Shown here piece by piece: positions 2,829-48,565 of a DNA stretch of 64,000 bases. Position 1 is the stretch's first letter; each line of letters starts with the position of its first letter. The notes beneath the pieces were generated by a model, which had not been told where the DNA came from, searched no databases, and saw only the letters and a list, made by a program, of their open reading frames with translations. Position numbers and translations under genes: made by a program. Origin of the DNA: a virus (taxonomy: Duplodnaviria; Caudoviricetes); IMG/VR virus record IMGVR_UViG_3300017754_001850, positions 2,451 through 66,450 of that record, one strand, 5' to 3'.

Positions 2829-4622
2829 ATGCTACGAACTATCGCTGTATTTTTTCTCCTGACATGCGCCGCCTACGGACAATACGGCATCGCTCGCAAG
2901 GTAATCACTGGCAGTGGTGCTCCACTCTCAGCTAACTGTGACGCTGCAAACGAGGTCGGCAACGTCTATGCAAGGACCAATGGGGCCGCTGCTTACGCCA
3001 CGTTTTATGTGTGCGGAAACACAGCGGCCTCAACGTATGCGTGGGAGCTGTACAGCACAGGCGGGTCCGTTAGCTCGGGTGCCGCTGGCAGTCTATCGTA
3101 CTACGCGACGACGGGGACGGCGCTCAGCCCATTAACGACGGCGTCCGGTATCTTGACGTGGTTGACCACCCCATCATCGAGCAACCTGCGAAGCGCAGTT
3201 ACCGATGAGACTGGCACTGGCGCGCTTGTCTTTGGGACTTCGCCTACACTGACGACACCAGCGCTTGGAACCCCATCGGCGATCGTGTTGACGAATGGGA
3301 CCGGACTGCCAGCCTCCGCCATCACAGGGCAGTTTGCCACGAACGCGCAGACCTCAACGTATCAAGTTCTGGCAGCGGACTTCACTTCGTGCAAAACGAT
3401 CATCGTCGCCAGCGGGACGTTCACGATTACCCTGGTAGCAAGCGGATCGCAGCCTGCCGATGGCGCGTGTATCACCGTGTTGAATTACGGAACGGGCGTT
3501 GTAACGCTGGCTCGGAGCGGGCAGAACATTAATGGCGCTGCGTCGAATCTGACAGGGACGGCTGGGTCAGCCACAGCGCCGACTGGGTGGCGCGTGTACT
3601 CCAACGGAACCAACTACTTTGCGGAGGTGATCGGCGGGGGTGGTAGTGGCGCTGTGTCCAGTGTCACCGCTGGTGCCAGTGGCGCTTTGACAATCTCCCC
3701 GACGACTGGCGCGGTTGTGGTGGACGTGGATACTGCCTACGTGCCTGGCAAGACTACTAGCAATACCTGGACCGGCGTGAATGATTTCAGCGGTGCCACC
3801 CGTACCGCTCCAATGAAGGTTGGAACATCCGACCCTGGTACCTGCACGGTTGGCGACTTCCTGTTCCGCAGCGACACCGGCACTACGAAAGCCTGCACCG
3901 CATCGAACACTTGGACCGCCGTTGGTAGCGGCGGCGGCACCGTCCGCACCACCTACGCTTCTCTACCGGCGTGCGGGAGTTCCAACACCAACTACCAGTA
4001 CGTCCTGACTGACAGCATTTACACCGCCAACTGCAACGGGTCTTCGTATGCCTACTGGACAGGGCAGAAGTATATCCCGACGTTACCATGGTCGAACGGG
4101 ACAGCCTACGGTAGCGGGGCCACGGTCACAGCTACAACTGGAAGCGTGCTGTTTGATGGCGGCGCTCCGAGAGGTGGAGATGCGCTACGCGCGTATGTGA
4201 AGGCCGTTCCGGCAGCGCCGTACACCGTGATTATCGACATCGACCATTACTCGGCGGGGTCGGTTACATCCTACTGCGGGATGTTCCTGACCGACGGTAC
4301 GACAATCGGATCGAATAAAGCGATTGCGTTTACGGTAGGGAACTCGGCCTTGTCGCTGACAAAATACAACGCGAGTTCCTCCTTCTCTGCCAACTACTTC
4401 AGCTACGCGGCGGCTCAGTCAAGAGGCAAGCTCTCGTTCCGCATGGTCGACGACAACACCAATCGCACCTGGTCAGTCTCGCAAGACCGGGTTAACTGGA
4501 CGCAAGTGCAGCAGGAAACCCGAACTGACTTCCTGACCGCCACACATTACGGCTATGGATGTAATATGACAGGCGTTGGCGGCTTCGTCACGATGACCGT
4601 CGAAGGTGTCTATGCGCAGTAG
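2829..4622 (+). CDS. fibre-like protein with Sec-type signal peptide
   Basis: MLRTIAVFFLLTCAAYG|Q; Gly/Thr/Ser-rich fibre segments; 10 Cys in the mature part. Confidence 0.7.
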   Translation: MLRTIAVFFLLTCAAYGQYGIARKVITGSGAPLSANCDAANEVGNVYARTNGAAAYATFYVCGNTAASTYAWELYSTGGSVSSGAAGSLSYYATTGTALSPLTTASGILTWLTTPSSSNLRSAVTDETGTGALVFGTSPTLTTPALGTPSAIVLTNGTGLPASAITGQFATNAQTSTYQVLAADFTSCKTIIVASGTFTITLVASGSQPADGACITVLNYGTGVVTLARSGQNINGAASNLTGTAGSATAPTGWRVYSNGTNYFAEVIGGGGSGAVSSVTAGASGALTISPTTGAVVVDVDTAYVPGKTTSNTWTGVNDFSGATRTAPMKVGTSDPGTCTVGDFLFRSDTGTTKACTASNTWTAVGSGGGTVRTTYASLPACGSSNTNYQYVLTDSIYTANCNGSSYAYWTGQKYIPTLPWSNGTAYGSGATVTATTGSVLFDGGAPRGGDALRAYVKAVPAAPYTVIIDIDHYSAGSVTSYCGMFLTDGTTIGSNKAIAFTVGNSALSLTKYNASSSFSANYFSYAAAQSRGKLSFRMVDDNTNRTWSVSQDRVNWTQVQQETRTDFLTATHYGYGCNMTGVGGFVTMTVEGVYAQ

Positions 4623-7137
4623 TCTCCTCCTCCTCATCCTTTCCATCCCCGCCTTCGCGCAGGTCTACAGCGCCGTCAGCGTAACCGACATCAGCCATAG
4701 CGCTGCGACGGTCAAGTGGACAACCAGCGTTGGTGCTGGCACCTACATCAAATACGGGCCGACCGCTGGCTATGGGTCTGTATCGGAAGACAGCGGTAGC
4801 AGTAATACGGTTCACGAGTGGTTCGTCTCTGGACTCGACGCCAGTACGCTCTACCACTACATGCTCTGCTCGAACTCCGGCAGTTGCGATGCCAGCGACC
4901 GCACGTTCACCACCTCCGCGCTCCCGTCGCCTCACCCTGCCATGCCGACGCTGCCAACCACTACACCTGTGCTGCCAGCGATGCCGACTGTGTGGGGTAC
5001 TACGGCGACTATCACTGATTGCTCGGCGCTGCAAGCGGCGTTCACCTCCGCTGCCGCTGCTGACGGCAACGATAACCACCTCATCAGTATCACAAAAACC
5101 CTCGACTGCTCGTTCAATATCAACTACGGTGAGGGCGGTGGTGGGCCTGCAGCGATCACGTTCCCGGCAAAGTCAGGGGCTAACTCCAGCGGCACAGGGC
5201 AGATCGTCATTACTACCACCGGCACGCTGCCCCCTGAAGGTAGCCGGATCACCAGCGACTACTACTCCGAGATGCCCATATGGCGCGTAGGTCCGTTTGT
5301 ACCTGAGCGCGCTGGCCCTGAGTCGGTCGGCACCTGTATTGCTGGACAACTCTACTGGTCCTTCGTCGCGGCTGGATGGGGACTGTACGAATGTACGACC
5401 CCAGGAACCAACACCTACACACTCGCAGCGAAGACCGATTTCAGCGGGGCCATTCCTGCGTCATGCGCGAACGACAACACTTGGTACAACAAGACCGACG
5501 CATCCGGTGACCCGACTCGCCTCTACTGGTGCGGGGATAGCAAACTCTACGCCATTAACATCGGCAACACCCCCGCAGGCGGCGCGATCGGCTTCGACGC
5601 CTCAGCCCATCACTATCGGTTCAGTGGCATCCGCTTCCTCGCTACTCCCACAGCGAGCGGGGGCGTGCCGGCGTCATGGGCCTCATATGCCTACAACTTC
5701 AACTTCATGTACGGCATCTTCGACTGGTACACAAATGCCTCCATCAACAACATCTACCTCGATCGGATCCAGGTGGATGTGTCCTACCCCTACCGGCTGC
5801 GGTGGACGGCCATCACGAAGGGCACTGACATCATCATCGCCAACAGCATCATAGCCAGCGACTACAACGTCCCTACGCTTGGCGACTCGACCGGCTGTAA
5901 CCCCTGTCACACGTCGTTCATTCAACTCAGCGGAGCGGATAATATCCTGTTAGACAATAATTTCGTTGACAGCACTGGAATCACGGTATTCGCCACGGAC
6001 GATGCGCCGTCTACGGCGTCGACTGATGTGACGGTCACCCGCAACTACTTCGTGAATGGCAGCAAGCACATCGCTGGTACCGCCGCGAACACGACCTACT
6101 GCGGCGGCTGCTTCTTTCCGTCCCGGCACCAAATAGAAATTAAGATCGGCGCTCGATGGTTGATCGAGGGGAACCAGTTCGACTCTCACTTCACGTCGAC
6201 GAACAACCAGGGCGACCTCATTAACTTCTCAACTCGGCCTGGATCGAAACGGCTTCCAGTCAGCGATATGTGGGTCAAAAACAACAAGGCATGGAGCATT
6301 CCTAATTTCGCGTACATCGTCGGACACAACGACTACAACGAGCAGGCGGCGGCGACAACCCGTGTGGCGTTCACCGGTAACCTCGTCTACGACATCGACG
6401 GCGACCGATACCCCACTGGTGGAAGCGCCCGCGAGGGTCGTGGATGGCGCGTGTTCTACGGCGCTGAGGACACTGTGATGACCGGCAACACTATCCTCAA
6501 CGCCTGCACCGGCTACGCTCCATACCTAGCCATGAACGACCTCGGCAACAGCGAGGGTTTGGAACTTCACAACAACATCGCGAGCGGTTGCTCGGTCAGC
6601 GCGCCGTACTATTTCCTTGGCCGCGTAACGACTGGCGGAGGAACCACAGGGCTTAACGCCGGATGGCCTGCAACGACCGGCTACAGCGTGACGAACAACG
6701 TGAACTACGATGCTGGCGGTGGACTCGTTGGCACTGGCTACCCCTCCGGCAGCTACTGGCCTGCTTCGCTTGCTGCTGTGGGCTTCGTCGATACTTCGAC
6801 GCTCGACTACCGGCTGAAGTTCTCGTCGACCTACGCACCGAATGGGGCGGGCGCGGACCCGGATGTGATTAAGGCGGCTTATGGGGAGGTGTATAATCTT
6901 CGCGCCTTGTCGATCACGTCCAGCGGGGCGACGGTGTACTACACCGCCCCGACCTCAACTGAAAATTGTGTCGTGGAGTATGGCACCTCTGCCACCCCAG
7001 GCACCGGCTCCCGCGTGACTGACTCCACGGGTAGCCGGTTTAGATCGAAGGCTCTGACGGGGTTGACGACGGGGACGGCGTATTACGCGAGAGTTTACTG
7101 CTCGCAGATGGCTAGCGTTTCGTTCACTACACAATAG
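4612..7137 (+). CDS. signal peptide + FN3-like domain + right-handed beta-helix + FN3-like domain
   Basis: MRSSLLLLILSIPAFA|Q; ATVKWTT...SGL....YHY FN3 pattern at both ends; repeated IxNN/IEGN beta-helix strands. Start placed at ATG 4612 after GAAGGTG. Confidence 0.75.
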   Translation: MRSSLLLLILSIPAFAQVYSAVSVTDISHSAATVKWTTSVGAGTYIKYGPTAGYGSVSEDSGSSNTVHEWFVSGLDASTLYHYMLCSNSGSCDASDRTFTTSALPSPHPAMPTLPTTTPVLPAMPTVWGTTATITDCSALQAAFTSAAAADGNDNHLISITKTLDCSFNINYGEGGGGPAAITFPAKSGANSSGTGQIVITTTGTLPPEGSRITSDYYSEMPIWRVGPFVPERAGPESVGTCIAGQLYWSFVAAGWGLYECTTPGTNTYTLAAKTDFSGAIPASCANDNTWYNKTDASGDPTRLYWCGDSKLYAINIGNTPAGGAIGFDASAHHYRFSGIRFLATPTASGGVPASWASYAYNFNFMYGIFDWYTNASINNIYLDRIQVDVSYPYRLRWTAITKGTDIIIANSIIASDYNVPTLGDSTGCNPCHTSFIQLSGADNILLDNNFVDSTGITVFATDDAPSTASTDVTVTRNYFVNGSKHIAGTAANTTYCGGCFFPSRHQIEIKIGARWLIEGNQFDSHFTSTNNQGDLINFSTRPGSKRLPVSDMWVKNNKAWSIPNFAYIVGHNDYNEQAAATTRVAFTGNLVYDIDGDRYPTGGSAREGRGWRVFYGAEDTVMTGNTILNACTGYAPYLAMNDLGNSEGLELHNNIASGCSVSAPYYFLGRVTTGGGTTGLNAGWPATTGYSVTNNVNYDAGGGLVGTGYPSGSYWPASLAAVGFVDTSTLDYRLKFSSTYAPNGAGADPDVIKAAYGEVYNLRALSITSSGATVYYTAPTSTENCVVEYGTSATPGTGSRVTDSTGSRFRSKALTGLTTGTAYYARVYCSQMASVSFTTQ

Positions 7138-7138
7138 A

Positions 7139-7687
7139 CTATGGAACGTGGCTCCAAGTTTTTCTTTGAACGATGAACCTGATATTGCTTTTACTTGTCC
7201 CGACTTTAATACTGATATCGGAGTAAGTCGATCCGCTTGCCCTTAAATGTCGTATGTGTAATACGTCAGCTTCCGTTAATATCGCCTTATAGTGAGCCTC
7301 CCCTTTGTGAACCATATCAGGGAATCTCCTGTAAAAGTTTTTATCTCCAATCATTCCTCTTTTTCGAGTAACCATATCGGCCATGTTTTCTAAATGTGTA
7401 CCAAGCCTGAGATGCGCCGGATTACAGCACGCCCGGTTGTCGCAGGAATGGATGACGAATAATCTTAATGGGTCCACCCCATACGCAATCGAATAGGCAA
7501 TTCGGTGTGCTCTAAAGCACCGCTGTGGCTTTTCTTTGCGCTTATACCAGCACCCGTATCCATTACTAAACCGACAAGCACCCCATTCCCAGCACTCTTC
7601 GTTTGTCTTCCCTGAAGCTATCTTCCAAAAATCTTCACGCTCTTCTTGCGTCAAGATAGGTAGCCGCCTACAGTTGTTATTAGCCAT
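7139..7687 (-). CDS. HNH homing endonuclease with C-terminal HTH
   Basis: CWEW..G...GYG, RAHRIAY, HSCDNRACCNPAHL.LGTH.ENM; AT-richer than its flanks. Confidence 0.9.
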   Translation of the reverse strand: MANNNCRRLPILTQEEREDFWKIASGKTNEECWEWGACRFSNGYGCWYKRKEKPQRCFRAHRIAYSIAYGVDPLRLFVIHSCDNRACCNPAHLRLGTHLENMADMVTRKRGMIGDKNFYRRFPDMVHKGEAHYKAILTEADVLHIRHLRASGSTYSDISIKVGTSKSNIRFIVQRKTWSHVP

Positions 7688-7714
7688 GTGATTCCTCTTA
7701 AATCGTGTGGTCAG

Positions 7715-7756
7715 AACCGCGCGTGATGCTTGAACATCGCACGCGGTTTCGTTTTT
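7715..7756 (+). terminator. putative intrinsic terminator
   Basis: Imperfect GC-rich stem AACCGCGCGTGATG/CATCGCACGCGGTT followed by TCGTTTTT. Confidence 0.5.
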
Positions 7757-7765
7757 AGGATACCA

Positions 7766-8245
7766 CTACGACCACCTAGAGAACGGCAACTCCACCCGGT
7801 TCGCCCGCGCCCGCTCCAGCATCTCGGCCACTCGCGCCCGCTCGGCCTCAGTGTCAAGCATCGGCAGCATCTCGATCTCCTTCTTCTCCGCTCTCGACAT
7901 CCGCTGCATCTTCTGCGACTGAGGCGGCTTGACGTAGACTCGCGACTGCCTGTGCTCAGGCTCAGCCCTTACCTTCTTCATGTGCTTCCTCTTCGCCTTG
8001 CGGATGACTTCCTTCTTGTTCTCTTCCATGTGCTCTCGGCACAGGTTTAGCTTCGATAACGGCTCGGCTGGCTTGTCGCACTTCTTGCACTTCCCACGGT
8101 CGCCGATAGCCATGTACCTGGATGGATCGATGTTGTTGCGGACTCGCAGGCGCTCTCGCGTTTCGACGTTTTTGCAGGCTTTGTGAGCGCCTTTGATGAG
8201 TTCGCCGCCCAGGTGGCAGAAGCGGCAGGTGGTGGCGCGGGTCAT
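7766..8245 (-). CDS. hypothetical protein with CxxC pairs
   Basis: 159 aa; CRFC, CKKC and LCREH motifs; coupled to the upstream gene. Confidence 0.65.
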   Translation of the reverse strand: MTRATTCRFCHLGGELIKGAHKACKNVETRERLRVRNNIDPSRYMAIGDRGKCKKCDKPAEPLSKLNLCREHMEENKKEVIRKAKRKHMKKVRAEPEHRQSRVYVKPPQSQKMQRMSRAEKKEIEMLPMLDTEAERARVAEMLERARANRVELPFSRWS

Positions 8246-8496
8246 GGCCTGCCTCCTCGTGCGGAGTCGATGGCGGCGCGAGTGATAGGCACGTTGCGCC
8301 GAAACAGAGATGACGGGATGAGTTGTCCGTGCTCGATACAGCGTTGCTCGTATGCCATCTCGCCCTCTAGATAATCCATGCGCTTGCTATCCTCCCGCGC
8401 CTCCGCCAGCGCGGCTTCGAGGGTGGCTACCCTAGCCTGTAACTGGCCTTCGCTCGCCATTAATGCGCAAATAGCATCGTTTGTGGTACTGTTCAT
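8242..8496 (-). CDS. hypothetical phage protein (Ead/Ea22-like tail)
   Basis: DSKRMDYLE...RAAIDSA motif; SD GAGGAAGG. Confidence 0.6.
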   Translation of the reverse strand: MNSTTNDAICALMASEGQLQARVATLEAALAEAREDSKRMDYLEGEMAYEQRCIEHGQLIPSSLFRRNVPITRAAIDSARGGRP

Positions 8497-8741
8497 CCCT
8501 TCCTCTCCTTCTCCCACTCGGCCTTGCAGTAGTCCTCGAACGTCGGATAATCATGCCATTTCGGCGACAAATACAGAAGCGCCAAGCGCATATATCCCGC
8601 ACTGTCTCTCCCGAATATCCAGCTTTGAAACTCCAGAGCCTCAGCGCCCATCCGCAGAGCGTCATGCTCCTCGCAGATCAACGCGTCACGGTCGATTACC
8701 CGTAGCACCTCCGCCGCGCGTTTAATACTCATCGTGTCCAT
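8493..8741 (-). CDS. hypothetical protein
   Basis: Coupled ORF; KRAAEVL N-terminal motif. Confidence 0.55.
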   Translation of the reverse strand: MDTMSIKRAAEVLRVIDRDALICEEHDALRMGAEALEFQSWIFGRDSAGYMRLALLYLSPKWHDYPTFEDYCKAEWEKERKG

Positions 8742-9042
8742 TCTGTATCTCCCATGCCGGAAGGTGTGAAAAATCCGGCTCCCTGTAGTTATCGATCAAC
8801 GCCTGTGCCTTGTCAGCCACAGCCAACGGGGCATACCAAGCAAAGCCACTCCACTTTGCTCCAAGCTTCTTGAGTTCGTATCTGACGGGGTACCCGTTAC
8901 CGGACAATCGCCGATTGAGGATAGGTCGCATCACCTTCTTGACAGGTGCTTTGGCGGCTTCCGTAGCGGCGATAATGTCATCAATCGTCGGGGATTCGGT
9001 TACCTCGGTAATTCGCACCTCCGCCGCGCGTGCGGGGGTCAT
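8722..9042 (-). CDS. hypothetical protein (GNxYPVRxELKKLGAKW domain)
   Basis: ATG 9042 after GGAG; DUF5710-like motif as recalled. Confidence 0.6.
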   Translation of the reverse strand: MTPARAAEVRITEVTESPTIDDIIAATEAAKAPVKKVMRPILNRRLSGNGYPVRYELKKLGAKWSGFAWYAPLAVADKAQALIDNYREPDFSHLPAWEIQNGHDEY

Positions 9043-9221
9043 GGCTCCACCTTCGGAAACTCGACATTCCCCGCGCAAATTTCGTACCCAAACGCCGTGT
9101 TGATAGCCTCCCGCGCCGCGTCCGTCCACTTCTTCGAGCCGTCCGTGCTCGCGTCACTCATTAGCGCCGTGATGGCTTTCTGCGCCTCCATGTAGGCATC
9201 GCGCCGTTCTGCTTTCGTCAC
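9039..9221 (-). CDS. hypothetical protein
   Basis: GTG start after GGAGGTG; ATGA overlap downstream. Confidence 0.55.
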   Translation of the reverse strand: MTKAERRDAYMEAQKAITALMSDASTDGSKKWTDAAREAINTAFGYEICAGNVEFPKVEP

Positions 9222-9252
9222 GCCCCCACCTCCAGCAACCAGCCCCAGCGAT

Positions 9253-10056
9253 TTACAGACTGCATACTTCCTCCTCGTCTGATTCGCCATCAAAACAGCC
9301 GCATGGCGTCTCGATCACTTCCGTGAATAGCCGTAGCTGTGCATCATCGGCATCCGCCAGCGACTCCCATGACCAGTTCCGGCCCAGCCCCTTGACGGCT
9401 GTATTCTTCGACTGAGCATTTCGTTCCATCTCCACGGCCCTGGCGAATAAATCCGGATGCTCGCGGCGTAGCTTCAGAATCTCTCCCTTCTTCGAGGATG
9501 GGCAAAAGAAGCACGCAGACTTAACCGGAACCGGAATCCCAGCGCGAGTAATCGCCTCGATGCACTCCTTGCGTCCCCAGTTCCATTCGCGGAGTGGAAA
9601 GAAAAACTCCGTTTTTGGATCAGCCATTAAGCTGCGATGTGACTCGCCAGCGTCGTAGCCGATGGCCTGTCGGATCTTCAGGCCATCGGCTAGCGCCGGT
9701 TTCGCAAACTCCCAGTTATTGAAGAACTTGCGTTGCGGGTCAGCCTTCCATCGCTGAGAGCAGGTCTTGAATCCGTAGGCGATAGAAGGAAGCGTCTCCA
9801 TGCGAAGGCATTGCGCCTCTAGAGTTTTTGCGACGGCGTTGGGATTGTCCGCCACGGAAACCACTGTTATTTTTGGCCAGCCGATAGACGCGAGCCATTC
9901 GTCTACAACCTTCATATGGCTGTAGGTCTCCGGCTTTTCTCCGCCAGTGTCAGAAAACAGGATTAGGTCCGGCCTTTGCCCTCGCTCGTGAAACCCAACA
10001 AGCATGGCAGTTGAGTTCACGCCACCGCCATACGAAACTACCAATGGCGGCTTCAT
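9253..10056 (-). CDS. PAPS reductase-family (PP-loop) protein
   Basis: VSYGGGVNST, FSDTGGE, C..RWK, PL.EW, KSACFFCP. Start at ATG 10056 by ATGA coupling. Confidence 0.85.
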   Translation of the reverse strand: MKPPLVVSYGGGVNSTAMLVGFHERGQRPDLILFSDTGGEKPETYSHMKVVDEWLASIGWPKITVVSVADNPNAVAKTLEAQCLRMETLPSIAYGFKTCSQRWKADPQRKFFNNWEFAKPALADGLKIRQAIGYDAGESHRSLMADPKTEFFFPLREWNWGRKECIEAITRAGIPVPVKSACFFCPSSKKGEILKLRREHPDLFARAVEMERNAQSKNTAVKGLGRNWSWESLADADDAQLRLFTEVIETPCGCFDGESDEEEVCSL

Positions 10057-10391
10057 ACCTGGATCACCCAGCCCCATCGCCCGTCGCGCTGCTCGACGGT
10101 GATGGCGGCGATGGTGTAACTTGTCGGAACGCACCCAAAGAATCCGATATTGATTCCGTCGTCGGGCTTGCCGTAGGGGCAGGTGAAAAACGGGTTGCCG
10201 CACATGTTTTGCTTGTGCGTGCCGCGCTTGCCCCAGAAACACCACTCGTCTGTCTTGTTGTAGCGGTCCGGATACCACAGCGAGGTGTCGTTGTATCGCT
10301 CGTCCGGCTGCTTCCGCATCGCCCGCCAGAACCGCCGCTCGCCGTTCGCGTAGGCGGCTGATTCAGCGCGGTTGAGTCTCAATGTCTTCAT
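10053..10391 (-). CDS. hypothetical protein (truncated ASCH-like, CPYGKP motif)
   Basis: Coupled ORF; RAMRKQP...TCPYGKPDD. Confidence 0.6.
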   Translation of the reverse strand: MKTLRLNRAESAAYANGERRFWRAMRKQPDERYNDTSLWYPDRYNKTDEWCFWGKRGTHKQNMCGNPFFTCPYGKPDDGINIGFFGCVPTSYTIAAITVEQRDGRWGWVIQV

Positions 10392-10837
10392 ACCACACCT
10401 TCTGAAATGCGCTTATCCCGCATCTCTCGATATTTCCTTGCTCCGTATATCGCCTTACATCGACGGCAGAATCTAAATCCTGCTTTGCTGAAGCTGAACT
10501 CGTCGTCACACCTAGGGCATCTCCGCTTCTTGGCATTGCCGTTAATCATAAGCCCGTCACGGGTAGCGTCCTGTAAATTGGTTCTGTTGTCAGCGATATA
10601 CAGGTGTGATGGATTACAGCATGACTTCACATTGCACCGATGGCAGGAAAACAGACCTTTTGGTATCTCAAGCCCAAGATGCTGGAGGATAAAGCGGTGG
10701 GCTGGTATCATTCTGCCGTTCGCGTAGAATGCCCCATACCCATCAACTCCGTTTGTTCCGCCAGTCCACAGCCAGCAGCCTGAGTTTGGTTCTGGGATGA
10801 CTCGCCCCATAAATCTATCGATTGCGCTCTTTTTCAT
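10388..10837 (-). CDS. HNH homing endonuclease
   Basis: PEPNSGCWLWTG, AHRF, CHRCNVKSCCNPSHL; start after GGAGGG. Confidence 0.9.
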   Translation of the reverse strand: MKKSAIDRFMGRVIPEPNSGCWLWTGGTNGVDGYGAFYANGRMIPAHRFILQHLGLEIPKGLFSCHRCNVKSCCNPSHLYIADNRTNLQDATRDGLMINGNAKKRRCPRCDDEFSFSKAGFRFCRRCKAIYGARKYREMRDKRISEGVV

Positions 10838-10850
10838 GCACCCTCCAGCT

Positions 10851-10991
10851 TTACTGCTTCGATACCACTTTTTCAATGTAGGCGCGAAGGAACGCCGATA
10901 CACCGCTGAACCCGGCTTCAGCGGCCTTAATGCGAAGCGGCTTGATCTGACTATCCGGGATGCGAAACGAGATTAGAGTTTGCTTTGTCAT
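10851..10991 (-). CDS. RHH DNA-binding protein, 46 aa
   Basis: Translated by hand: MTKQTLISFRIPDSQIKPLRIKAAEAGFSGVSAFLRAYIEKVVSKQ. Confidence 0.75.
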   Translation of the reverse strand: MTKQTLISFRIPDSQIKPLRIKAAEAGFSGVSAFLRAYIEKVVSKQ

Positions 10992-10997
10992 AGATAA

Positions 10998-11026
10998 ATC
11001 TTATCACGCAAGTCACTACTACGCAA
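10998..11026 (-). promoter_or_regulatory. sigma70-type promoter, leaderless
   Basis: TTGCGT-17nt-TAAGAT with ATG 6 nt downstream. Confidence 0.6.
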
Positions 11027-11222
11027 TCCGATCCTTTCTTCGCTCGATGGCGCGGAGGTTTTTTGCGTGACGGTGAACGGCACGCCACTGGCGATCAAAA
11101 TACGGGTCATCCCAGTAGATCTCGACCATGCCGAGCGTAACTCGGTAGCGGTCATTCGCCGATAGTGCCCTCTCCCGCGCAATACCCAGCCGCTTGCGGG
11201 CCATGCGGATGCGGCTGGTCAC
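11019..11222 (-). CDS. hypothetical basic protein
   Basis: GTG start with GTGA overlap. Confidence 0.55.
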   Translation of the reverse strand: MTSRIRMARKRLGIARERALSANDRYRVTLGMVEIYWDDPYFDRQWRAVHRHAKNLRAIERRKDRIA

Positions 11223-11431
11223 TCCGCACCACCAATCTGCTTGTCCGATACTGCAATCGGGAAGTGTTCGGCAAATGGAGCAATGACCCACTCCATCACC
11301 CAATTGATTGCCGTCCCCCACAAAGCGATAAACTCGCCGCACTCCCAGCAGTACGCGCCTTTGAAGATCGGGTATAGCATGTAGGCATGGTGCAGCCGTT
11401 TGCAGCCGCATGACGGGCATTTAGTTGGCAT
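11219..11431 (-). CDS. zinc-ribbon protein
   Basis: CPSCG...CWECG. Confidence 0.6.
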   Translation of the reverse strand: MPTKCPSCGCKRLHHAYMLYPIFKGAYCWECGEFIALWGTAINWVMEWVIAPFAEHFPIAVSDKQIGGAE

Positions 11432-11646
11432 CACTTCACGCCTCTCAGTAACTCCGCGCCCATCGCCCATTTCGTGAACTTGAGAAGCTCCATGTACTCA
11501 ATCGTCGTCATCCTGCCTCCTCCACTCGTCTCAACTACAACCACGCCATGACGCTTGCCCATGACGATCCGGCGCAGTACCTTCGACTTCCAGACATCTC
11601 CGCGCCGTGGCTTGACGACGGCGACGTAGGCTTTGCGGTCGCTCAC
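11431..11646 (-). CDS. hypothetical protein
   Basis: Coupled ORF in the early operon. Confidence 0.6.
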   Translation of the reverse strand: MSDRKAYVAVVKPRRGDVWKSKVLRRIVMGKRHGVVVVETSGGGRMTTIEYMELLKFTKWAMGAELLRGVK

Positions 11647-36475: not shown

Positions 36476-36486
36476 TAGGAGATTGA

Positions 36487-38993: not shown

Positions 38994-39022
38994 TAGTTTC
39001 GCGCTATGGTATAACTTAATCA

Positions 39023-41479: not shown

Positions 41480-41657
41480 CGCAATCTCCGACAAGATCGC
41501 GGCGCAGTCGGACATGCTGTCCGATGATCGGTGTGCAAACATCGAGCAATATCGCCGCGCATGTGGGATCATCTACGGTCTGAAGATGGCCCTCGAAGAG
41601 TTCGACGAAGTTATGTCGAAAATCCCAGACAATGAAGAAGTGGAGGACACTGCATGA
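41451..41657 (+). CDS. small head-module protein
   Basis: EQYRRACGIIYGL motif after the portal gene. Confidence 0.75.
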   Translation: MATLRTRYHSAISDKIAAQSDMLSDDRCANIEQYRRACGIIYGLKMALEEFDEVMSKIPDNEEVEDTA

Positions 41658-42055
41658 GCACAGTGTTAGAACCCATCCGCACAGTATCGGGTGTGGCGAT
41701 CGAAGACTTACCGCAGCCGCGTGGCCCGTACATGCTGGTGAAGATGCGGAAGTTGAGCGAAAAGGTGAGCAAAGAGAGCCTTCTCTATGTTCCAGAGATC
41801 CGTATTGCCGACGAGCAGCACGCCTGCCCGCTGGCTGAAGTCATCTTGCTTGGGCCTGAGTGCTTCAACAACCCGCCCGAGAACTTCCCTGCCGGTGCGC
41901 GATGCAAGGAAGGCGACATCACTATCATGGCTCCCTACGCCGGTCAGCGAATGCTGGTCGGTAGCGAGATTGAAGCCGATGAGTATCGCCTGGTTGCCGA
42001 CGCCTGCGTGACCGCCGTGGTCCCTGCCCCTGAACTGGTGCGGAGGAATATGTAA
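41654..42055 (+). CDS. GroES/Cpn10-like co-chaperonin
   Basis: LPQP.GPYMLV, LLYVP, AEVILLGP, KEGD...YAG, YRLV.D. Confidence 0.8.
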   Translation: MSTVLEPIRTVSGVAIEDLPQPRGPYMLVKMRKLSEKVSKESLLYVPEIRIADEQHACPLAEVILLGPECFNNPPENFPAGARCKEGDITIMAPYAGQRMLVGSEIEADEYRLVADACVTAVVPAPELVRRNM

Positions 42056-42969
42056 TGGAAGATGAAATCCTCGTAGAAGGCGACGAACAAGAACTTCCAA
42101 TCGAAGTCGAAGTCGAACCGGAAGTAGTATCGGATCGACCGGCGTTCGATGAGGCCGCGATCAAGGCGCAGGAAGAAGAAGACGCGCAGGACATCGAGAA
42201 GTTCCCTCGCCCGATCAAGAAGCGGTTCGAGACGCTGACGTACCATGTGCGTGAGCGTGAACGGCAGATCGAAGAGGAGCGGAAGAACTCCCAGGCGCTT
42301 CTCGAATACGCCAACGGCGCGAAGAGTGTGATCGAGCAGTTGTCCCGCGAGAAGGAAGAACTTCAGAAGTCCCTCCAGCGCGAGGCGCTTGCTGCTCGTG
42401 AGGCGCAGATTCATTCTGTGCAGCGCGAGTTCGCCGCCGCCCGTGAGTCTGCTGACATCGACAAGGAAGTCGAAGCGAACCGGAAGCTGGCGGAGATCAC
42501 GCAGCAACGGTCGCAGATCGCCCAATTCCAGCCGCAGGCAGCGTTCCAGCCACCTCCCCCACCGCAACGCCAGCAAGTAGACCCACAGCTTCCGCCTGAG
42601 ACGGTAGAGTGGGTCCAAAAGAATACGTGGTTCCTAGAAGACCGTAAAATGCAACGCTACGCTGTTGACTTCTCGCAAGAGCTTGTCCAGCAAGGGGTTG
42701 CAGAGGGAACACAGACTTACTATAATCGCATTGACGCAGAGATGCGCAAGAGATTCCCGGAGAGTTTTGAAACTAGCGCAATGAATGATATCGCCAAGAC
42801 CCAACCCGCCGCAAGAACTGTGAGCCGCCCGCCCGTCGCTACTGCCGCCCGTACCAACGGCGCTGTAAGTGGCGCACGGAAAGTAGTCCTGACCGCCACC
42901 GAAGCAGCAGCCGCAAGAAAGATCGGTGTGCCGCTCGAAGAATACGCGAAGTACGTGAAGAGAGGCTAA
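42055..42969 (+). CDS. capsid scaffolding protein
   Basis: Acidic coiled coil; C-terminal LT..EAAAARKIGVPLEEYAK. Confidence 0.8.
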   Translation: MEDEILVEGDEQELPIEVEVEPEVVSDRPAFDEAAIKAQEEEDAQDIEKFPRPIKKRFETLTYHVRERERQIEEERKNSQALLEYANGAKSVIEQLSREKEELQKSLQREALAAREAQIHSVQREFAAARESADIDKEVEANRKLAEITQQRSQIAQFQPQAAFQPPPPPQRQQVDPQLPPETVEWVQKNTWFLEDRKMQRYAVDFSQELVQQGVAEGTQTYYNRIDAEMRKRFPESFETSAMNDIAKTQPAARTVSRPPVATAARTNGAVSGARKVVLTATEAAAARKIGVPLEEYAKYVKRG

Positions 42970-42970
42970 T

Positions 42971-43495
42971 ATGGCAATCGCACCTCGGACCCTAATCACC
43001 CCTCCCGTCAACGCTATTCCCGGCGATAGGGCACTTAATGCACGCGAGGAAGAATCGCGCAAGTACGTGTACGAGCCTCCCGGCAAACTGCCGAAGGTTA
43101 AGAAGAGTGCTGACTGGACCCACAGGTGGTGTCGCTTCCGTATCAAAGCGGGTGTCGACGATCCTGGCAATATGGGCAAGCACAAGCGAGACGGCTACGA
43201 GCCTGTCAAGTTTGAGCAGCGGTTTGAAGTACTAGAGCATCCAGACACCGTATTCCCTGATTCCTCAGGTAATATCGTCATCGGGGATCTGGTTCTTTGC
43301 CTGCGCCACGCCTATATCACGCAAGGGCGCAGAGAGTACTACGAAGACCTGACGAAGAAGCAGTTGCGCGGGGCTCAACAACAGGCCTCGAAGAATCAGC
43401 ACACCCAAGGGATAGACCCTCGCCACGGCAGGGTCGAGGATAGTTCTCGGTCTACCTTCCAATCAGGTAAGGCCGTAGACTTCTCCGACGACTAG
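42971..43495 (+). CDS. head-module hypothetical protein
   Basis: RWCR...REGY-like and IGDLVLC motifs; position between scaffold and capsid genes. Confidence 0.75.
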   Translation: MAIAPRTLITPPVNAIPGDRALNAREEESRKYVYEPPGKLPKVKKSADWTHRWCRFRIKAGVDDPGNMGKHKRDGYEPVKFEQRFEVLEHPDTVFPDSSGNIVIGDLVLCLRHAYITQGRREYYEDLTKKQLRGAQQQASKNQHTQGIDPRHGRVEDSSRSTFQSGKAVDFSDD

Positions 43496-43535
43496 GGCTT
43501 GTTGAGACTTCTCTATCTTCTGGAGAGTCTTACTC

Positions 43536-44135
43536 ATGTCAGCTACTTCCGCTCCGTATGGGTTGAAACCCATTTACGACGTTGGTGGCAGTGTGCGCGG
43601 TCAGGTGACGATGATCACCCTCGGCGCTAACACTGCTACCGCGTTTTACAACGGTGACATCGTCAATGTCGGGGTCGGTGTTGCCACCCCCGTTGCCGCT
43701 ACGCCCACCACCACCCGCAACGGCAATACCCCGTGGGGCATCTTCATTGGTGCCAACTGGACCGACCAGAACGGTCGCCCCCAGTACACACAGTATTTGC
43801 CTGCCAACGCCTACACCTCCTATAACGCCTACGGCCCGATCACGCTTGAAGTTGTGACCGACCCGGATGTTCGCATGATGGTGCAGGCTAACGGGTCCGT
43901 CGCCTATACCGCCATCGGCCTCAACGCGCCGCTCGGTGGGTTTGGTGGCAGCACTGTTACTGGCAATTCCAGCGTCCACTTGGTCGCCGCCTCGGCTGCT
44001 ACCACCAACACGCTGGCCGTCAAAATCATCGACATCGCTCCTGGCCCCGACAACGCGGCTGGCGATGCCTACACGGACTGCATCGTTATCTGGAATCAGA
44101 ACGTGCACGCCTTCAAGAACATCCTGGGAGCCTAA
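43536..44135 (+). CDS. capsid decoration/cement-like protein
   Basis: APYGLKP...DPD..MVQ; immediately upstream of the capsid gene. Confidence 0.7.
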   Translation: MSATSAPYGLKPIYDVGGSVRGQVTMITLGANTATAFYNGDIVNVGVGVATPVAATPTTTRNGNTPWGIFIGANWTDQNGRPQYTQYLPANAYTSYNAYGPITLEVVTDPDVRMMVQANGSVAYTAIGLNAPLGGFGGSTVTGNSSVHLVAASAATTNTLAVKIIDIAPGPDNAAGDAYTDCIVIWNQNVHAFKNILGA

Positions 44136-44138
44136 CCG

Positions 44139-45050
44139 ATGCCAGTCATTACGCGCGCACAAGCAAATCGAGAATTGACTCCTGGGCTGCACGCCTTGTG
44201 GGGTCTGGAAAACAAACGCTATCAGGACGAGTGGAAACCCATCTTCGAGATGAACACCTCTGAACGGGCGTTTGAAGAAGAAGTTGCCCTCTCCGGCTTC
44301 GGCTCTGCCGCCATCAAGACGGAAGGCGCGAGCGTCGAATACGACACGGCGCAAGAGTTCTACACCACGACCTATCGTCACGTCACCGTGGCGTTGGCCT
44401 TTGCCATCACGCAGGAAGCGATCGAAGACAACCTGTATGCTGATGTTGGTCGGCGCTACACGAAGGCGTGTGCGTGGTCGATGCAGAACACCAAAGAGGT
44501 GATGGGCGCTAGTGTTCTAAATAACGGGTTCTCGGCCAGCTACCTCGGTGGCGACGGCAAGCGCCTGTTCGCTACTGACCACCCGCTGGTCAGCGGCGGC
44601 GTGAACAGCAACCGCCCTGCCACCTACGTTGACCTGTCTGAGACGGCGTTGGAAAACGCGGTCATCCAGATCGGCGCGTGGAAAGACCAGCGCGGCTTGT
44701 TGATCGCAACGAAGCCGAAACAGCTTGTTGTGCCCAATGACCTCAGCTTCACTGCCGACAAACTGTTGGCGACGGTGCTGAAGGTTGACTCGGCTGACAA
44801 CACTATCAACTCCATCCTGCATACTGGGGCCATCCCGAAGGGCTATCACGTGAACCACTACCTCACTGATCCCGACGCTTGGTTCCTAACCACGGACGCG
44901 CCCGATGGGTTGAAGTACTTCAGCCGCATCCCGCGCAGCTTCGAGGAGGATGGCGACTTTGATACTGGTAACCTCCGGTACAAGGCCCGCGAGCGGTACA
45001 GCTTTCTTTGGACTAACCCCCTTGGCTGCTTTGGAAGTCAAGGCATCTAG
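44139..45050 (+). CDS. major capsid protein
   Basis: RELTPGLHALWG, SERAFEEEV, DGKRLFATDHP, RYKARERYSF. Confidence 0.92.
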   Translation: MPVITRAQANRELTPGLHALWGLENKRYQDEWKPIFEMNTSERAFEEEVALSGFGSAAIKTEGASVEYDTAQEFYTTTYRHVTVALAFAITQEAIEDNLYADVGRRYTKACAWSMQNTKEVMGASVLNNGFSASYLGGDGKRLFATDHPLVSGGVNSNRPATYVDLSETALENAVIQIGAWKDQRGLLIATKPKQLVVPNDLSFTADKLLATVLKVDSADNTINSILHTGAIPKGYHVNHYLTDPDAWFLTTDAPDGLKYFSRIPRSFEEDGDFDTGNLRYKARERYSFLWTNPLGCFGSQGI

Positions 45051-45090
45051 TTTCAACGACTTGCGAGCATAGGTAACATAACACTAACAT

Positions 45091-45157
45091 GACACGAGAG
45101 CGAGTAGCTAGGGCAAGGCAGACAATGTGTTTCGTCAGCGCATCTCGCTCTCGTGTT
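45091..45157 (+). promoter_or_regulatory. 13-bp stem upstream of the GIY-YIG gene
   Basis: ACACGAGAGCGAG (45092-45104) pairs with CTCGCTCTCGTGT (45144-45156). Confidence 0.55.
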
Positions 45158-45173
45158 TGCTCCTTGGGCGGCA

Positions 45174-45782
45174 ATGATGCCTTACTCTAAAAAAAGAATT
45201 GGTATCTACAGGATCCTGAATACGGAAAACGGGAAGTGTTACGTTGGTCAGTCCAGGAACTTGTACAAGCGGATGTCCGAACATAAACGATTGCTGTGCC
45301 TTGGGAAGCATCCAAATCAAAAACTGCAACATGCGTACAAAAAGTACGGAGAGGCTAGTTTTAAGTTTTCAATTGAAATTGAGTGCGAAGACCCATCTGA
45401 CCTAGACTCTATCGAAATGATGTTTATTTCTGGTGAGGCTCGTTTTGATGATGATACCGCATCCTACAATATTTGCCGTCAAACGACTTCAGGGATGGCT
45501 GGCAGGAAACACTCTGAGGCTACAAGGATTAAGATCGCAGCTAACAGGAAGCCAGTTGCTGATGTGGCTAGGTGGCGAAAGCACTTGATCGATGGAGCTA
45601 TTCGATCAGCTATGACCGACCCGCATCGACGCAAGCAGATTGAGGCAGTCATATATTTGACTGAGATGAGAAATTGCGATTTGGCACGATTGATCGGTAA
45701 AGACCCTTCGACATGCCTGAGAATGACAAAACGCTACAGAAACTTGTACCAAAAAGGAATCCTCAATGAATACCTCTTTTAG
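45174..45782 (+). CDS. GIY-YIG homing endonuclease
   Basis: GIYRILN..NGKCYVGQS.NL.KR..EH; NUMOD3-like GRKHSEATR.KI. Confidence 0.92.
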   Translation: MMPYSKKRIGIYRILNTENGKCYVGQSRNLYKRMSEHKRLLCLGKHPNQKLQHAYKKYGEASFKFSIEIECEDPSDLDSIEMMFISGEARFDDDTASYNICRQTTSGMAGRKHSEATRIKIAANRKPVADVARWRKHLIDGAIRSAMTDPHRRKQIEAVIYLTEMRNCDLARLIGKDPSTCLRMTKRYRNLYQKGILNEYLF

Positions 45783-46266
45783 CGGCCCAGTCCGGTCCGA
45801 GAACGGCTTCGCTGCGTATCGCACGGCCTCTTCCACTTCTAACGTATCCATCGCTCTCGCCACTCAAGGCGTGGGCGTGGTCGTCCCCACAGTTGGCCCG
45901 ATCGTGAACTTCACGACGGTGACCACGGACGCCACGGCTGGGGATGTGACATACACCGCAGCGCAGGTTAAAGGTGGCCTGATCCTTCGGGATCCTGGGG
46001 CTAACCGCGCTGACCTGTTCCCGACTGCCGCCGCGCTCGTAGCCGCGTTGCCGTCGTGCGTGGTTGGCACCTCGCTTGTCGTCCATATCCGCAATGAGGC
46101 GAACGGCGCTGAGACGATTACCATGACGACGAATACCGGCCTAACGCTGAGCGGCACGATGACGATCGCTCAGAATAACGCTAAGTCGTTCCTGATCGTT
46201 TTGACGAACGTGACCTCTGGCGCGGAAGCGGCGACGGTCTACTCTCTCGGCACCGTGGTGTTCTAA
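45766..46266 (+). CDS. putative head decoration/structural protein
   Basis: MNTSFSGPVRSENGF start; beta-rich; follows the capsid gene. Confidence 0.65.
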   Translation: MNTSFSGPVRSENGFAAYRTASSTSNVSIALATQGVGVVVPTVGPIVNFTTVTTDATAGDVTYTAAQVKGGLILRDPGANRADLFPTAAALVAALPSCVVGTSLVVHIRNEANGAETITMTTNTGLTLSGTMTIAQNNAKSFLIVLTNVTSGAEAATVYSLGTVVF

Positions 46267-46267
46267 T

Positions 46268-46588
46268 ATGTCAAAGCCAATGTCTATTTCGACAGATGGC
46301 GTCTCCGTCTCCAGTGTAGCGGGGCTTTGCCATTACATCGCTCCCTTCTCGGCGTCCGTCTTTACGACGGTCACCGGGACGGCGACGTACACGCTACAGT
46401 ACACAAACGACAATATCCAAGCGGCGGGGTTTGATCCATCGACGGCGAACTGGCAATCGCATCCTCAAATGACAGGTGCGACGGTTAGCGGACTGGTCGA
46501 GTTTACCGCGCCCGTCGTGGCGGTTCGTTTGAATCAAACGGTAGGGGCGGGTTCAGTCGCCGGGAAGGTAACACAGGCTGGTCTATGA
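46268..46588 (+). CDS. putative structural protein
   Basis: TATYTLQYT.D...P...AVRLNQT.G.GSV. Confidence 0.65.
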   Translation: MSKPMSISTDGVSVSSVAGLCHYIAPFSASVFTTVTGTATYTLQYTNDNIQAAGFDPSTANWQSHPQMTGATVSGLVEFTAPVVAVRLNQTVGAGSVAGKVTQAGL

Positions 46589-47619
46589 GACTCGTATTGC
46601 TGTTGATTGCTATGGCCCCAGCGTGGGCGCAGTTCGGGGCGGCTGTCCAAGTGGTCAACGGGAATGGGGTTCCGAACCCAGCTTACTGTGCCAGCTCTAA
46701 TAACGTCGGCATGGTGTATGCGCGGAAAGATGGGGCGGCGGCGAACACGACGTTCTACGTCTGCTCGAACACTGGTGCGTCCACGTATGAGTGGGCGCTT
46801 ACTGGTGGCGGTGGCGGGACTGGTGACGTTGAAGGAGGGACGAACTTAACGACATCCGGAGCCATCCCGTATGTGTCGGCGGCTGCGACTCTGGATGAAG
46901 ACGGGTCGTTCTTGCGGGTGAGCACGGGGAAGTACACTTTACTGGACCCCACGGCGGTGACTGGAGACTCGAAGTTCGTCGTTAAGAACGGGGCTGGACA
47001 GGCGGCTAATCTGCAGGAGTGGCAGGACAGCGGTGGGACGGCGATGGCTGGAGTCACCAAAGAAGGCTACGGATTCTTCGGATCTACGCCGGGAATGCAG
47101 TTGCGGGGAGACACGGCGCAGTTGTCGATCTTTGATACCTCTGCCAGTCGGCATCTTTTCGCGATTCAGAACTCGGCTCTGATCGGCATATCAGCAGGCG
47201 CTGCGTTGGCTTGGTCGAATGGCAATCAAGCCACCGGCACCGTTGACGCTGGGTTTGCCCGTAATGGTGATGGGATTGTTGAGGTCAACAACGGCACGGC
47301 GGGTACTCTCCGCGACCTCATTCAGCGCCACCCGTTAGCTGGTGGCACGTCGCCAACGATCACGTCAGGCTTTGGCACTACGCCATCCATCGCGGGGAAA
47401 GACGCTGCCGGTCGGATAACTGTAGGCTCCGGTGGCACGGCTGCTACAGGGACCATCACATTCGGCACTGCTTGGGCGACGGCCCCGGTTTGTACAGCCG
47501 CGAACGAGACTACGCAATTAGCCTTATTCCCCACGGCTACCACCACGACGCTCGTATTGGCGTCGACGACGCCGTTCACAGCCGCCGACAAGCTCGTCTA
47601 TCAGTGCATCGGATACTAA
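46585..47619 (+). CDS. fibre-like protein with Sec-type signal peptide
   Basis: MRLVLLLIAMAPAWA|Q; N-terminal module 33/58 identical to that of 2829-4622. Confidence 0.7.
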   Translation: MRLVLLLIAMAPAWAQFGAAVQVVNGNGVPNPAYCASSNNVGMVYARKDGAAANTTFYVCSNTGASTYEWALTGGGGGTGDVEGGTNLTTSGAIPYVSAAATLDEDGSFLRVSTGKYTLLDPTAVTGDSKFVVKNGAGQAANLQEWQDSGGTAMAGVTKEGYGFFGSTPGMQLRGDTAQLSIFDTSASRHLFAIQNSALIGISAGAALAWSNGNQATGTVDAGFARNGDGIVEVNNGTAGTLRDLIQRHPLAGGTSPTITSGFGTTPSIAGKDAAGRITVGSGGTAATGTITFGTAWATAPVCTAANETTQLALFPTATTTTLVLASTTPFTAADKLVYQCIGY

Positions 47620-47620
47620 A

Positions 47621-48565
47621 ATGACAAACCGAGAAAAGCTACTCCTCATACTCACTGTTTTTGTCGGCTTGTTCCTTGGCCGATCACTCGCAGCGCAGAC
47701 GGCTGGAACGCCATCACAGATCAAAGGTACCGGCGCTCCGTCGTCGGGGCTTTGCATCGCGGGGAGTGTTGGTCAAGAATACTTCCAGACCGATGCGACC
47801 GCTGGGCAGAATGTCTTCAAATGCACCTCCGCTGGCGTATGGACGCAAGCCAGTGCGGCGACGACAGAGATCCAGAGCGGCGGCATTTCGTACTGCGCCT
47901 CCGCTACCGGAAATGACTCTTATGCCTGCAACTTCTCCCCGGCGTTCACTGCCTACGATACGAACGGCACTTGCGTCTCCGGCGAGATTTGCACCGGCAC
48001 CGTGATCCAGTTTTACGCCGATGTCCAGAACACAGGGACAGCCACATTCGCGCCGAACGGGCTGGCAGGAAAGACGATCCGCAAGGGCGGAAAGAACGCA
48101 ACGCTGACCACGGGGGACATCGAGGCTGGTCAGGTCGTAACGCTGGCCTACAATCGAGTCGCCGACGTGTGGCAATATCAATCGCAGTTATCGACGGTGG
48201 TGAGCGGGTCACCGTCCTACGAGATGTACCAGTGGGGGCTTTGCATTGGATCATCTTGTGCGGTGGCTTCAAACCTCACGGCCTACGTCATCGTCTCTCA
48301 GGCGGTAACGCTGACTAAGTGCTACGCTTCAGCAAAAACAGCACCAACCGGCGCTGATCTAATTATCGACATCAAGAACGCTGGCACTTCGATATTCGGC
48401 GGCGGGACTAAGCTCGTGATCGCTGCGTCTGCCACTACCGGCAATCAAGCCACCATCGCCAACGCAGCTCTCGCGGAGAGCGCAAACTTAACCATCGACA
48501 TTACTCAAGTCGGCTCAACCATCGCAGGGCAGGACGTATCCGTGAAGTGCAAGGGATCGTATTGA
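47621..48565 (+). CDS. fibre-like protein with Sec-type signal peptide
   Basis: ...GLFLGRSLAA|Q; NTGTATFAPNGLAGKTIRK...GDIEAGQV tail-fibre domain; 10 Cys. Confidence 0.7.
   Translation: MTNREKLLLILTVFVGLFLGRSLAAQTAGTPSQIKGTGAPSSGLCIAGSVGQEYFQTDATAGQNVFKCTSAGVWTQASAATTEIQSGGISYCASATGNDSYACNFSPAFTAYDTNGTCVSGEICTGTVIQFYADVQNTGTATFAPNGLAGKTIRKGGKNATLTTGDIEAGQVVTLAYNRVADVWQYQSQLSTVVSGSPSYEMYQWGLCIGSSCAVASNLTAYVIVSQAVTLTKCYASAKTAPTGADLIIDIKNAGTSIFGGGTKLVIAASATTGNQATIANAALAESANLTIDITQVGSTIAGQDVSVKCKGSY

Follow-up and report, generated by a model that had tools for sequence, protein, structure and literature searches.

Four fibre-like proteins of an uncultured SU10-like podovirus carry probable Sec leaders followed by glutamine and may dock on the particle after export

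Textbook assembly of a tailed phage is wholly cytoplasmic, which makes a 64,000-nucleotide stretch of viral DNA (Caudoviricetes; IMG/VR record IMGVR_UViG_3300017754_001850), hereafter the window, a puzzling one: why do four of its genes, all coding for proteins with bodies like those of fibres or glycanases, open with what appears to be a cleavable Sec signal peptide followed by glutamine? The parent record (66,450 bp, with direct terminal repeats and estimated to be complete) contributes its bases 2451-66450 to the window, and the phage is an uncultured SU10-like podovirus from soil. The four open reading frames (ORFs), which we call ORF1 to ORF4, are listed below, with a slash for the predicted cleavage site. 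We regard export and periplasmic maturation of their products as highly probable.

2829-4622, plus strand: ORF1, 597 aa; predicted signal peptide 2829-2879 (...CAAYG/Q); Cys-paired N-terminal module (N-module), shaft of fibre repeats, and C-terminal domain matching PHROG 19068
4612-7137, plus strand: ORF2, 841 aa; predicted signal peptide 4612-4659 (...IPAFA/Q); fibronectin type III (FN3) domain, right-handed parallel beta-helix, and second FN3 domain, with Pfam FN3-type matches
46585-47619, plus strand: ORF3, 344 aa; predicted signal peptide 46585-46629 (...APAWA/Q); N-module, Gly linker, predicted trimeric shaft, and conserved C-terminal beta-sandwich tip (residues ~250-344)
47621-48565, plus strand: ORF4, 314 aa; predicted signal peptide 47621-47695 (...RSLAA/Q); N-module and C-terminal tip domain with four leader-linked Cys

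All four N-termini follow the same plan, in that a basic n-region, a Leu-rich h-region, and a small-x-small c-region precede the Gln, and the genes exist as the initial annotation had described them. Our leader screen, a crude heuristic of the von Heijne type, covered all 449 six-frame ORFs of at least 50 aa in the window. ORF1 to ORF4 ranked at the top among the real genes, with leaders being found on 4 of about 95 genes, and the other ORFs that passed were spurious ones of up to 97 aa, membrane proteins of 58 and 66 aa, and a transmembrane (TM) protein with a PAS domain. The two genes named beforehand as negative controls (53877-55211 and 48567-49565) showed no leader. At a Gln frequency of 4%, finding this residue at position +1 in four out of four proteins has a probability of about 3e-6. 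For ORF1, the screen itself had picked a cleavage site one turn earlier (TCA/A), which we rejected in favor of AYG/Q on the strength of homologs with leaders ending in AAWGQ, PLMAQ, and AAFAQ.

We also considered whether the true starts could lie downstream of the leaders, as this would overturn the initial annotation. Here, we noticed that the ORF3 start overlaps the upstream stop codon (ATGA), that ORF4 starts one base past the ORF3 stop, and that the next Met of ORF3 falls within a conserved domain, while GAAGGTG is found 5 nt upstream of the ORF2 ATG (4612). Because the genes overlap or abut their neighbors, GAAGGTG precedes 4612, and homologs have the leader in frame, downstream starts are not reasonable, and the starts were therefore retained. 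Shine-Dalgarno motifs are weak at three of the four starts, but the leaderless neighboring genes also have no strong sites, and hence this feature is uninformative.

Conservation of the leader among homologs had been suggested as a further check, and in nearly all close homologs it is indeed kept while its sequence drifts. The ORF1 homologs (P0168, P0173, P0178, P0179, P0182, P0183, and P0187) without exception show Gln directly behind a leader. For ORF2, a leader is present in 23 of 23 full-length homologs, nearly all of them ending in AQ or SQ (by eye, at least 22 of the 23 have Gln at +1), and though the leader sequence drifts, the first mature residues TYSAVSVTDISHSAA and the 16 Cys are kept. 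Leaders are likewise predicted in 34 of 43 ORF3 homologs and in 124 of 137 further matches to the N-module profile, where, despite a crude site picker, no other +1 residue comes near Gln in frequency. The N-module itself, of about 55 residues, lies directly behind the leader in ORF1 (2880-3062), ORF3 (46630-46809), and ORF4 (47696-47860), and its +1 Gln and two Cys (Q16, C35, and C60 in the context of ORF3 numbering) are invariant in 20 of 20 aligned sequences. A search with the N-module profile gave 484 cluster representatives, in which the module is located either right behind a leader or as repeats inside large proteins; a Pfam search with these large proteins gave nothing informative.

More conspicuously, the leaders co-vary with cysteines. 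The mature ORF1, ORF2, ORF3, and ORF4 proteins all have even Cys counts (10, 16, 4, and 10, respectively). Moreover, tips homologous to that of ORF4 are found on about 90 leaderless phage proteins, including, in cultured phages, a Rhodobacteraceae phage product annotated as 'virion structural protein' and a 'tail fiber protein' of Synechococcus phage S-CRM01. Within this family, Cys occupies all four of the columns C208, C213, C234, and C310 in 15 of 16 leader-bearing members, which may form one clade and so not represent 15 independent events, as against 0 of the approximately 90 leaderless members. Such a leader-linked gain of Cys is the pattern expected of a domain that has moved to an oxidizing compartment.

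A second co-variation is seen in the slot behind the capsid gene of related phages, which we designate by their contigs (L078, L130, and so forth). In L078 (7992-9693), this post-capsid slot holds a leader-bearing fiber and then a leader-bearing partner of 145 aa, whereas in L130 (4823-5830) a leaderless fiber is followed by a leaderless partner of 107 aa. L131 (9474-10001) shows a leaderless fiber only, as the contig ends inside the fiber gene. The capsid proteins of L130 and L131 are 90-91% identical to that of the window. The L078 and L130 fibers have a common shaft (E 1e-7), and the small partners, both coiled-coil proteins, are homologous (E 1e-21), with the alignment running from residue 2 of the leaderless version and starting right after the leader of the other one. 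The leader-bearing partner contains in addition a 22-residue insert with two Cys. Since the leaders of fiber and partner switch together in the two backbones compared, both proteins should work in the same compartment, whichever one that is. A window homolog of this small partner was sought, and none was found. Being conserved in kind, co-varying with Cys, and switching with the leader of a partner, the leaders are very probably functional export signals, as far as sequences allow this to be judged. The initial annotation had proposed folding in the periplasm; its export signals are borne out by these same three patterns, while cleavage, pyroglutamate formation, and disulfide bonding of the four proteins are predicted steps.

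To which host these leaders belong is indicated by L078, the only match found among GTDB genomes. This contig, binned in an Acidobacteriaceae metagenome-assembled genome (MAG; G001), is syntenic with the window, with 13 of its 23 genes matching window genes in the same order and with 54% identity between the capsid proteins. L078 was found with a second genome scan using the N-module (one locus), a first scan with a five-row N-module alignment having found nothing. In 581 kb of other contigs from the same MAG (L080-L099 and L110-L129), 46 ORFs pass the leader screen, and Gln is at +1 of the top-scoring site in 16 of them (35%), or in 21 when near-top sites are included, relative to an overall Gln content of 4.0%. 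Moreover, the MAG encodes a PF05096 glutaminyl cyclase (L079:1462-2193), whose own leader ends in LAG/Q. The GC content of the phage (52-60% in the window) fits what we take to be that of Acidobacteriaceae genomes. Thus, the Acidobacteria-like host and the Q-rule style of leader that had been read from the window both found backing, and the host is probably Acidobacteriaceae-like, the link being the metagenomic binning of a syntenic contig.

In Bacteroidetes, the Q-rule describes Sec export with signal peptidase I cleavage before Gln, including that of secreted phage proteins of Porphyromonas gingivalis, and the rule has been called exclusive to this phylum in papers whose analysis had Acidobacteria outside it (PMC5837995, PMC10653852, PMC10367356). 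The MAG counts suggest that the Q-rule extends to Acidobacteriaceae. As with the P. gingivalis phages, the phage here would have adopted the Q-rule of a host with an exported glutaminyl cyclase, though the secreted proteins of those phages are without known function and have not been described as fibers. Two other features were looked for in the four proteins. No match to a Pfam C-terminal domain marking Type IX cargo was found in any of them (by Pfam scan only), and the Bacteroidota O-glycosylation sequon D-[ST]-[AILVMT] is enriched in none.

The bodies behind the leaders are fiber-like, as had been claimed, with a receptor-binding type of tip on a predicted ORF3 trimer, a beta-helix in ORF2, and an ORF4 tip homologous to annotated fibers. 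The AlphaFold2 (AF2) model of ORF2 is a confident one (predicted local distance difference test, pLDDT, 86.6; predicted template modeling score, pTM, 0.90), and Foldseek placed it at E ~5e-6 to a GH28 exopolygalacturonase and to the HK620 tailspike. In fact, the model is about equally like GH28 exopolygalacturonase, lacto-N-biosidase, the HK620 tailspike, and Klebsiella depolymerases, and ORF2 is accordingly treated as a candidate polysaccharide depolymerase or tailspike-like protein. A sequence search of the protein data bank (PDB) gave no match for ORF2 and one marginal match of 64 residues for ORF1.

For ORF3, the monomer model has a pLDDT of 65 and is poor outside of the last 95 residues, where the tip exceeds 90, and Foldseek found nothing for it at E <=0.001. 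Modeled as a mature homotrimer (three copies, with an alignment of our own), the same protein reached an interface score (ipSAE) of 0.90, as opposed to 0.00 for the best of three controls, although likeness to the well-represented solved trimeric fibers may raise this score. At least 90% of contacts are common to the trimer runs, the partner pLDDT is 87 or higher, and contacts extend along the whole length. Among proteins of solved structure, the mark set for the trimer score is attained by 20 of the 30 that are same-chain pairs and by 1 of the 23 that are single chains. This model supports, but does not show, binding between the chains in a predicted intertwined homotrimer. Its tip gave Z scores of 5.8-6.7 (VIA) to C-terminal domains of phage tailspikes and receptor-binding proteins (RBPs), pyocin fibers, and H-type lectins, which are middling values that may mean merely a common beta-sandwich. 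The shaft motif (AGAGQ..NLQEWQ) recurs in dozens of IMG/VR fiber genes, and the nearest ESM Atlas clusters of the shaft are viral; a tblastn search of ORF3 against GenBank phages gave no match.

The genes that frame these four, together with their neighbors, are as follows.

2231-2803, plus strand: small serine recombinase of the resolvase/invertase type, 190 aa (PF00239, E 2e-45), directly upstream of ORF1
from 37296, plus strand: large terminase
from 39023, plus strand: portal, followed by scaffold-like genes
44139-45050, plus strand: major capsid protein (PF25209 and Mu gpT-like matches), without leader; left edge of the post-capsid slot
45153-45782: GIY-YIG-type homing-endonuclease-like ORF, named by sequence motif only
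45766-46588, plus strand: two small leaderless genes (166 aa and 106 aa) preceding the slot fiber
48567-49565, plus strand: double F5/8 type C (discoidin) protein (PF00754 twice; PHROG 17517 'tail protein'), without leader
49575-50270, plus strand: head-tail adaptor (PF24175 SU10_adaptor, E 4.6e-14); right edge of the slot
53877-55211, plus strand: tail fiber with C-terminal S74 intramolecular chaperone (PF13884, PHROGs); leaderless internal negative control

ORF3 and ORF4 thus lie between the capsid and adaptor genes, an earlier placement that the PF25209 and PF24175 matches uphold, and ORF1 and ORF2 end the late operon. The pair of 166-aa and 106-aa genes is found upstream of the slot fiber in the window, L078, L130, and L131 alike. 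Leaderless SU10-type fiber genes occupy 52344-55211 and 57948-58775, and proteins of 275 aa and 969 aa are likened, by size and gene order only, to the SU10 short fiber (267 aa) and nozzle (1005 aa). Large internal-protein genes come after the 969-aa protein, and then an LPD38 protein, the recombinase, ORF1, and ORF2 around the record junction. A fiber cassette switched by an invertase, of the Mu Gin or P1 Cin type, was considered for the recombinase and rejected, as the best inverted pairs (14-42 nt, 71-93% identity) are off the gene borders; that ORF1 and ORF2 have the same orientation also counts against it. The recombinase is absent beside the pair of ORF1-like and ORF2-like genes in L137.

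What would these proteins do once exported? The initial annotation had offered three fates, namely attachment to virions at lysis, display on the infected cell, and release as decoys. We lean, at a little under an even chance, toward ORF1 to ORF4 being accessory host-surface-recognition proteins that are routed via Sec and dock late on the particle. They would amount to three trimeric fibers with lectin-like tips and one beta-helix glycanase, all passing through the Sec translocon. Made late in infection from the structural operon, the proteins would be exported by SecYEG and cut by signal peptidase I just before the Gln, whereupon an exported host glutaminyl cyclase would probably cap the new N-terminus as pyroglutamate. 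Folding, trimerization, and disulfide formation would take place in the periplasm. When holins open the inner membrane, or at burst, the exported proteins may meet finished particles and attach as extra head-proximal or tail-end appendages, there to bind or cut the envelope polysaccharide of the host. Put more generally, tailed phages of Q-rule hosts (Bacteroidota and Acidobacteriota) may assemble in two compartments, with cytoplasmic heads and tails and with an exported, mobile set of fibers, spikes, and partners that would be capped with pyroglutamate and disulfide-bonded in the periplasm and would dock only after holin action, a proposal that we hold to be possible but somewhat doubtful.

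Docking itself, to which we tentatively give slightly less than even weight from comparison with other phages, draws on where the genes lie. All four are translationally coupled within the late structural operon, leaderless fibers take the same post-capsid slot in near-identical backbones (L130 and L131), and leader-bearing proteins are found at tail-fiber or head-decoration gene positions in two other backbones (L003/L141 and L137). It also draws on Cellulophaga phage phi18:3 (NC_021794, Pachyviridae), whose gp085, gp086, and gp087 begin with leaders (...GYSQ, ...VSAQ, and ...LNAQ, each with Gln as last letter) and have been assigned to the virion or tail by an annotation based on tandem mass spectrometry (MS/MS). 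We inspected the GenBank record of this phage for annotation and N-termini, and virion status here rests on its label 'experimental MS/MS proteomics'; nine other MS-annotated proteins were inspected, and none has a leader with Gln. The initial annotation had held that the fibers of tailed phages lack signal peptides, which in view of phi18:3 is not strictly true. Like those in the window, the phi18:3 proteins are consecutive large late products of a short-tailed phage with a Q-rule host phylum, and have a Sec-type leader and Gln. Unlike them, they belong to a phage of Bacteroidota rather than Acidobacteriota, and contain 0-3 Cys instead of 4-16.

Several points weigh against docking, and most of them also feed a rival reading, a substantial possibility in our estimate, but distinctly below even: that the proteins are exported, never enter the particle, and act free in the periplasm, on the infected-cell surface, or in the lysate, where they would bind, mask, or degrade envelope polysaccharide. 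Such a fate is what a cleavable Sec leader would naturally suggest, and we know of no way for periplasmic proteins to become part of a tailed-phage particle. The phage already has a full leaderless set of long and short SU10-type fibers, beyond which the ORF1 to ORF4 proteins are accessory, and the content of the post-capsid slot varies among close relatives, as accessory genes do. Moreover, these fiber genes (57-92% identity, N-termini included) are the sole window-like genes in L003 and L137. Portal, terminase, capsid, and tail genes there bear no relation to those of the window, and the rest of these contigs adds one 60-residue match, to the 969-aa protein. A virion anchor is normally the backbone-specific part of a fiber. 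Because whole genes, N-termini included, are common to unrelated backbones, an anchor of this kind is doubtful, and when such an N-terminal domain was looked for, the N-termini proved to be a leader plus a generic repeat module. No co-transferred leaderless adaptor common to the window and L003 or L137 was found. Up to eight copies of the N-module inside large proteins mark it as a generic extracytoplasmic repeat unit, and it is also present in a chromosomal, apparently non-phage Acidobacteriota locus (L139:17096-20000 into L140; genome G270, contig 4). There, three consecutive exported fiber-like N-module proteins have a glycosyltransferase gene upstream and a sugar kinase-like gene a little downstream, with a 2-oxoglutarate dehydrogenase gene also flanking them. 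The FN3 and beta-helix layout of ORF2 is matched equally well by tailspikes and by 2uve, a GH28 exopolygalacturonase of the periplasm. Seen this way, the genes would form a host-specific cassette open to any phage of that host, and possible benefits include an easier escape through exopolysaccharide (EPS), the loss of fewer progeny by re-adsorption to debris, the keeping out of other phages, and adhesion of the infected cell to neighboring ones. Against this, a trimeric fiber with an RBP-type tip is a virion design, and three to four different tips per genome recall multi-RBP phages. Tight coupling inside the head-tail operon is unlike an autonomous moron, the leaderless counterparts in the same slot have no obvious job away from the particle, and there are the leader-bearing Cellulophaga phage proteins annotated as virion parts from MS/MS.

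Two further explanations fare less well. That the four are host-derived adhesin or enzyme morons expressed for the benefit of a lysogen, as in the lysogenic conversion of lambda Lom and Bor, is improbable. Cellular homologs of the N-module proteins do exist, and a recombinase gene adjoins ORF1, but this 190-aa enzyme of the resolvase type is the sole recombinase, inspection of the ORF listing turned up neither an integrase nor a repressor module, and no promoter or terminator of their own is apparent for genes that overlap or abut their neighbors. Moreover, ORF2 is conserved at full length on contigs that, at 62-65 kb, match this genome in size. We had also entertained the N-module as a common cellular domain of Acidobacteriota and dropped the idea, as it was found in just 3 of the 301 genomes searched, which speaks against morons as well. 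Least probable is that the hydrophobic N-termini are no export signals at all, and instead reflect mis-called starts, uncleaved anchors, or hydrophobic assembly peptides. The weak Shine-Dalgarno motifs before three of the four starts would suit such a case, but there is no room for alternative starts, the leaders are kept in kind and not in sequence over dozens of homologs with small-x-small/Q retained, and they co-vary with the four added Cys of the ORF4 tip and with the leader of a partner.

Among known systems, the annotation of phi18:3 is the nearest documented case and the Bacteroidetes Q-rule the nearest frame for the mechanism. Lambda Lom and Bor and T5 Llp are exported accessory phage proteins of the host envelope that are encoded among tail genes, with Llp masking the receptor, which keeps progeny from being wasted on debris. 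Unlike ORF1 to ORF4, these are small outer-membrane proteins or lipoproteins that are neither fiber-like nor trimeric, are typically one per phage, and often have a promoter of their own. The surface chimeric fibers of Bdellovibrio bacteriovorus (PDB ID: 8ond) are fiber-like and extracytoplasmic, but cellular, and the fold match is weak (E 0.3). Similar in build are the podovirus fibers and tailspikes (SU10 gp12, gp13, and gp16; T7 gp17; HK620 and P22), with their trimers and beta-sandwich tips, beta-helices, and late-operon genes, and the backbone of the window has an SU10-type adaptor as in SU10 (PMC9509320). However, those proteins are leaderless, fold in the cytoplasm, and have a backbone-specific anchor, whereas the ones here have a leader and a Cys-paired module, and their genes cross backbones. 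Our literature search found no paper describing Sec-exported fiber proteins of tailed phages; the leader-Cys link, the paired switch of fiber and partner leaders, and the movement of the genes between unrelated backbones are what the present analysis contributes.

If true, the docking of exported fibers would mean a second compartment of phage assembly, or else, should the proteins stay off the particle, a novel class of phage effectors, exported to act on the surface of the host. For annotation and host-range prediction, genes that look like those of RBPs may act off the particle, and the heterologous production of phage depolymerases may need oxidative folding. Leader style and Gln at +1 could also help to identify the host lineage of viral contigs.

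Some smaller observations concern the relatives. The L003 and L141 backbone has three leader-bearing fibers in a row and one more right after the capsid genes, and L137 has a leader-bearing pair after its internal-protein genes. In L141 (1818-4001), a leader-bearing protein of 727 aa (...SAYAQ) is encoded two genes downstream of the capsid gene, a post-capsid position like that of ORF3 and ORF4. In L003 (7722-9616), a third ORF with leader and N-module (7722-8000) overlaps, in another frame, a beta-helix-like ORF of 573 aa (7895-9616); here, a tailspike-like gene either has been misassembled or contains a frameshift, whether programmed or not. In L078, the tail fiber gene is followed, past a few small genes, by one that is holin-like and by one for a coiled-coil protein with a leader (...LQAQ).

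Within the window, the GIY-YIG-like ORF separates the capsid gene from that of 166 aa; L078 and L130 have no gene at this place. The discoidin protein (48567-49565) occupies the variable post-capsid slot together with ORF3 and ORF4, and its counterpart is absent in L078, L003, and L137. Lastly, the product encoded at 55215-55823, in the tail module directly after the tail fiber gene, is a single-pass membrane protein with a fused PAS domain.

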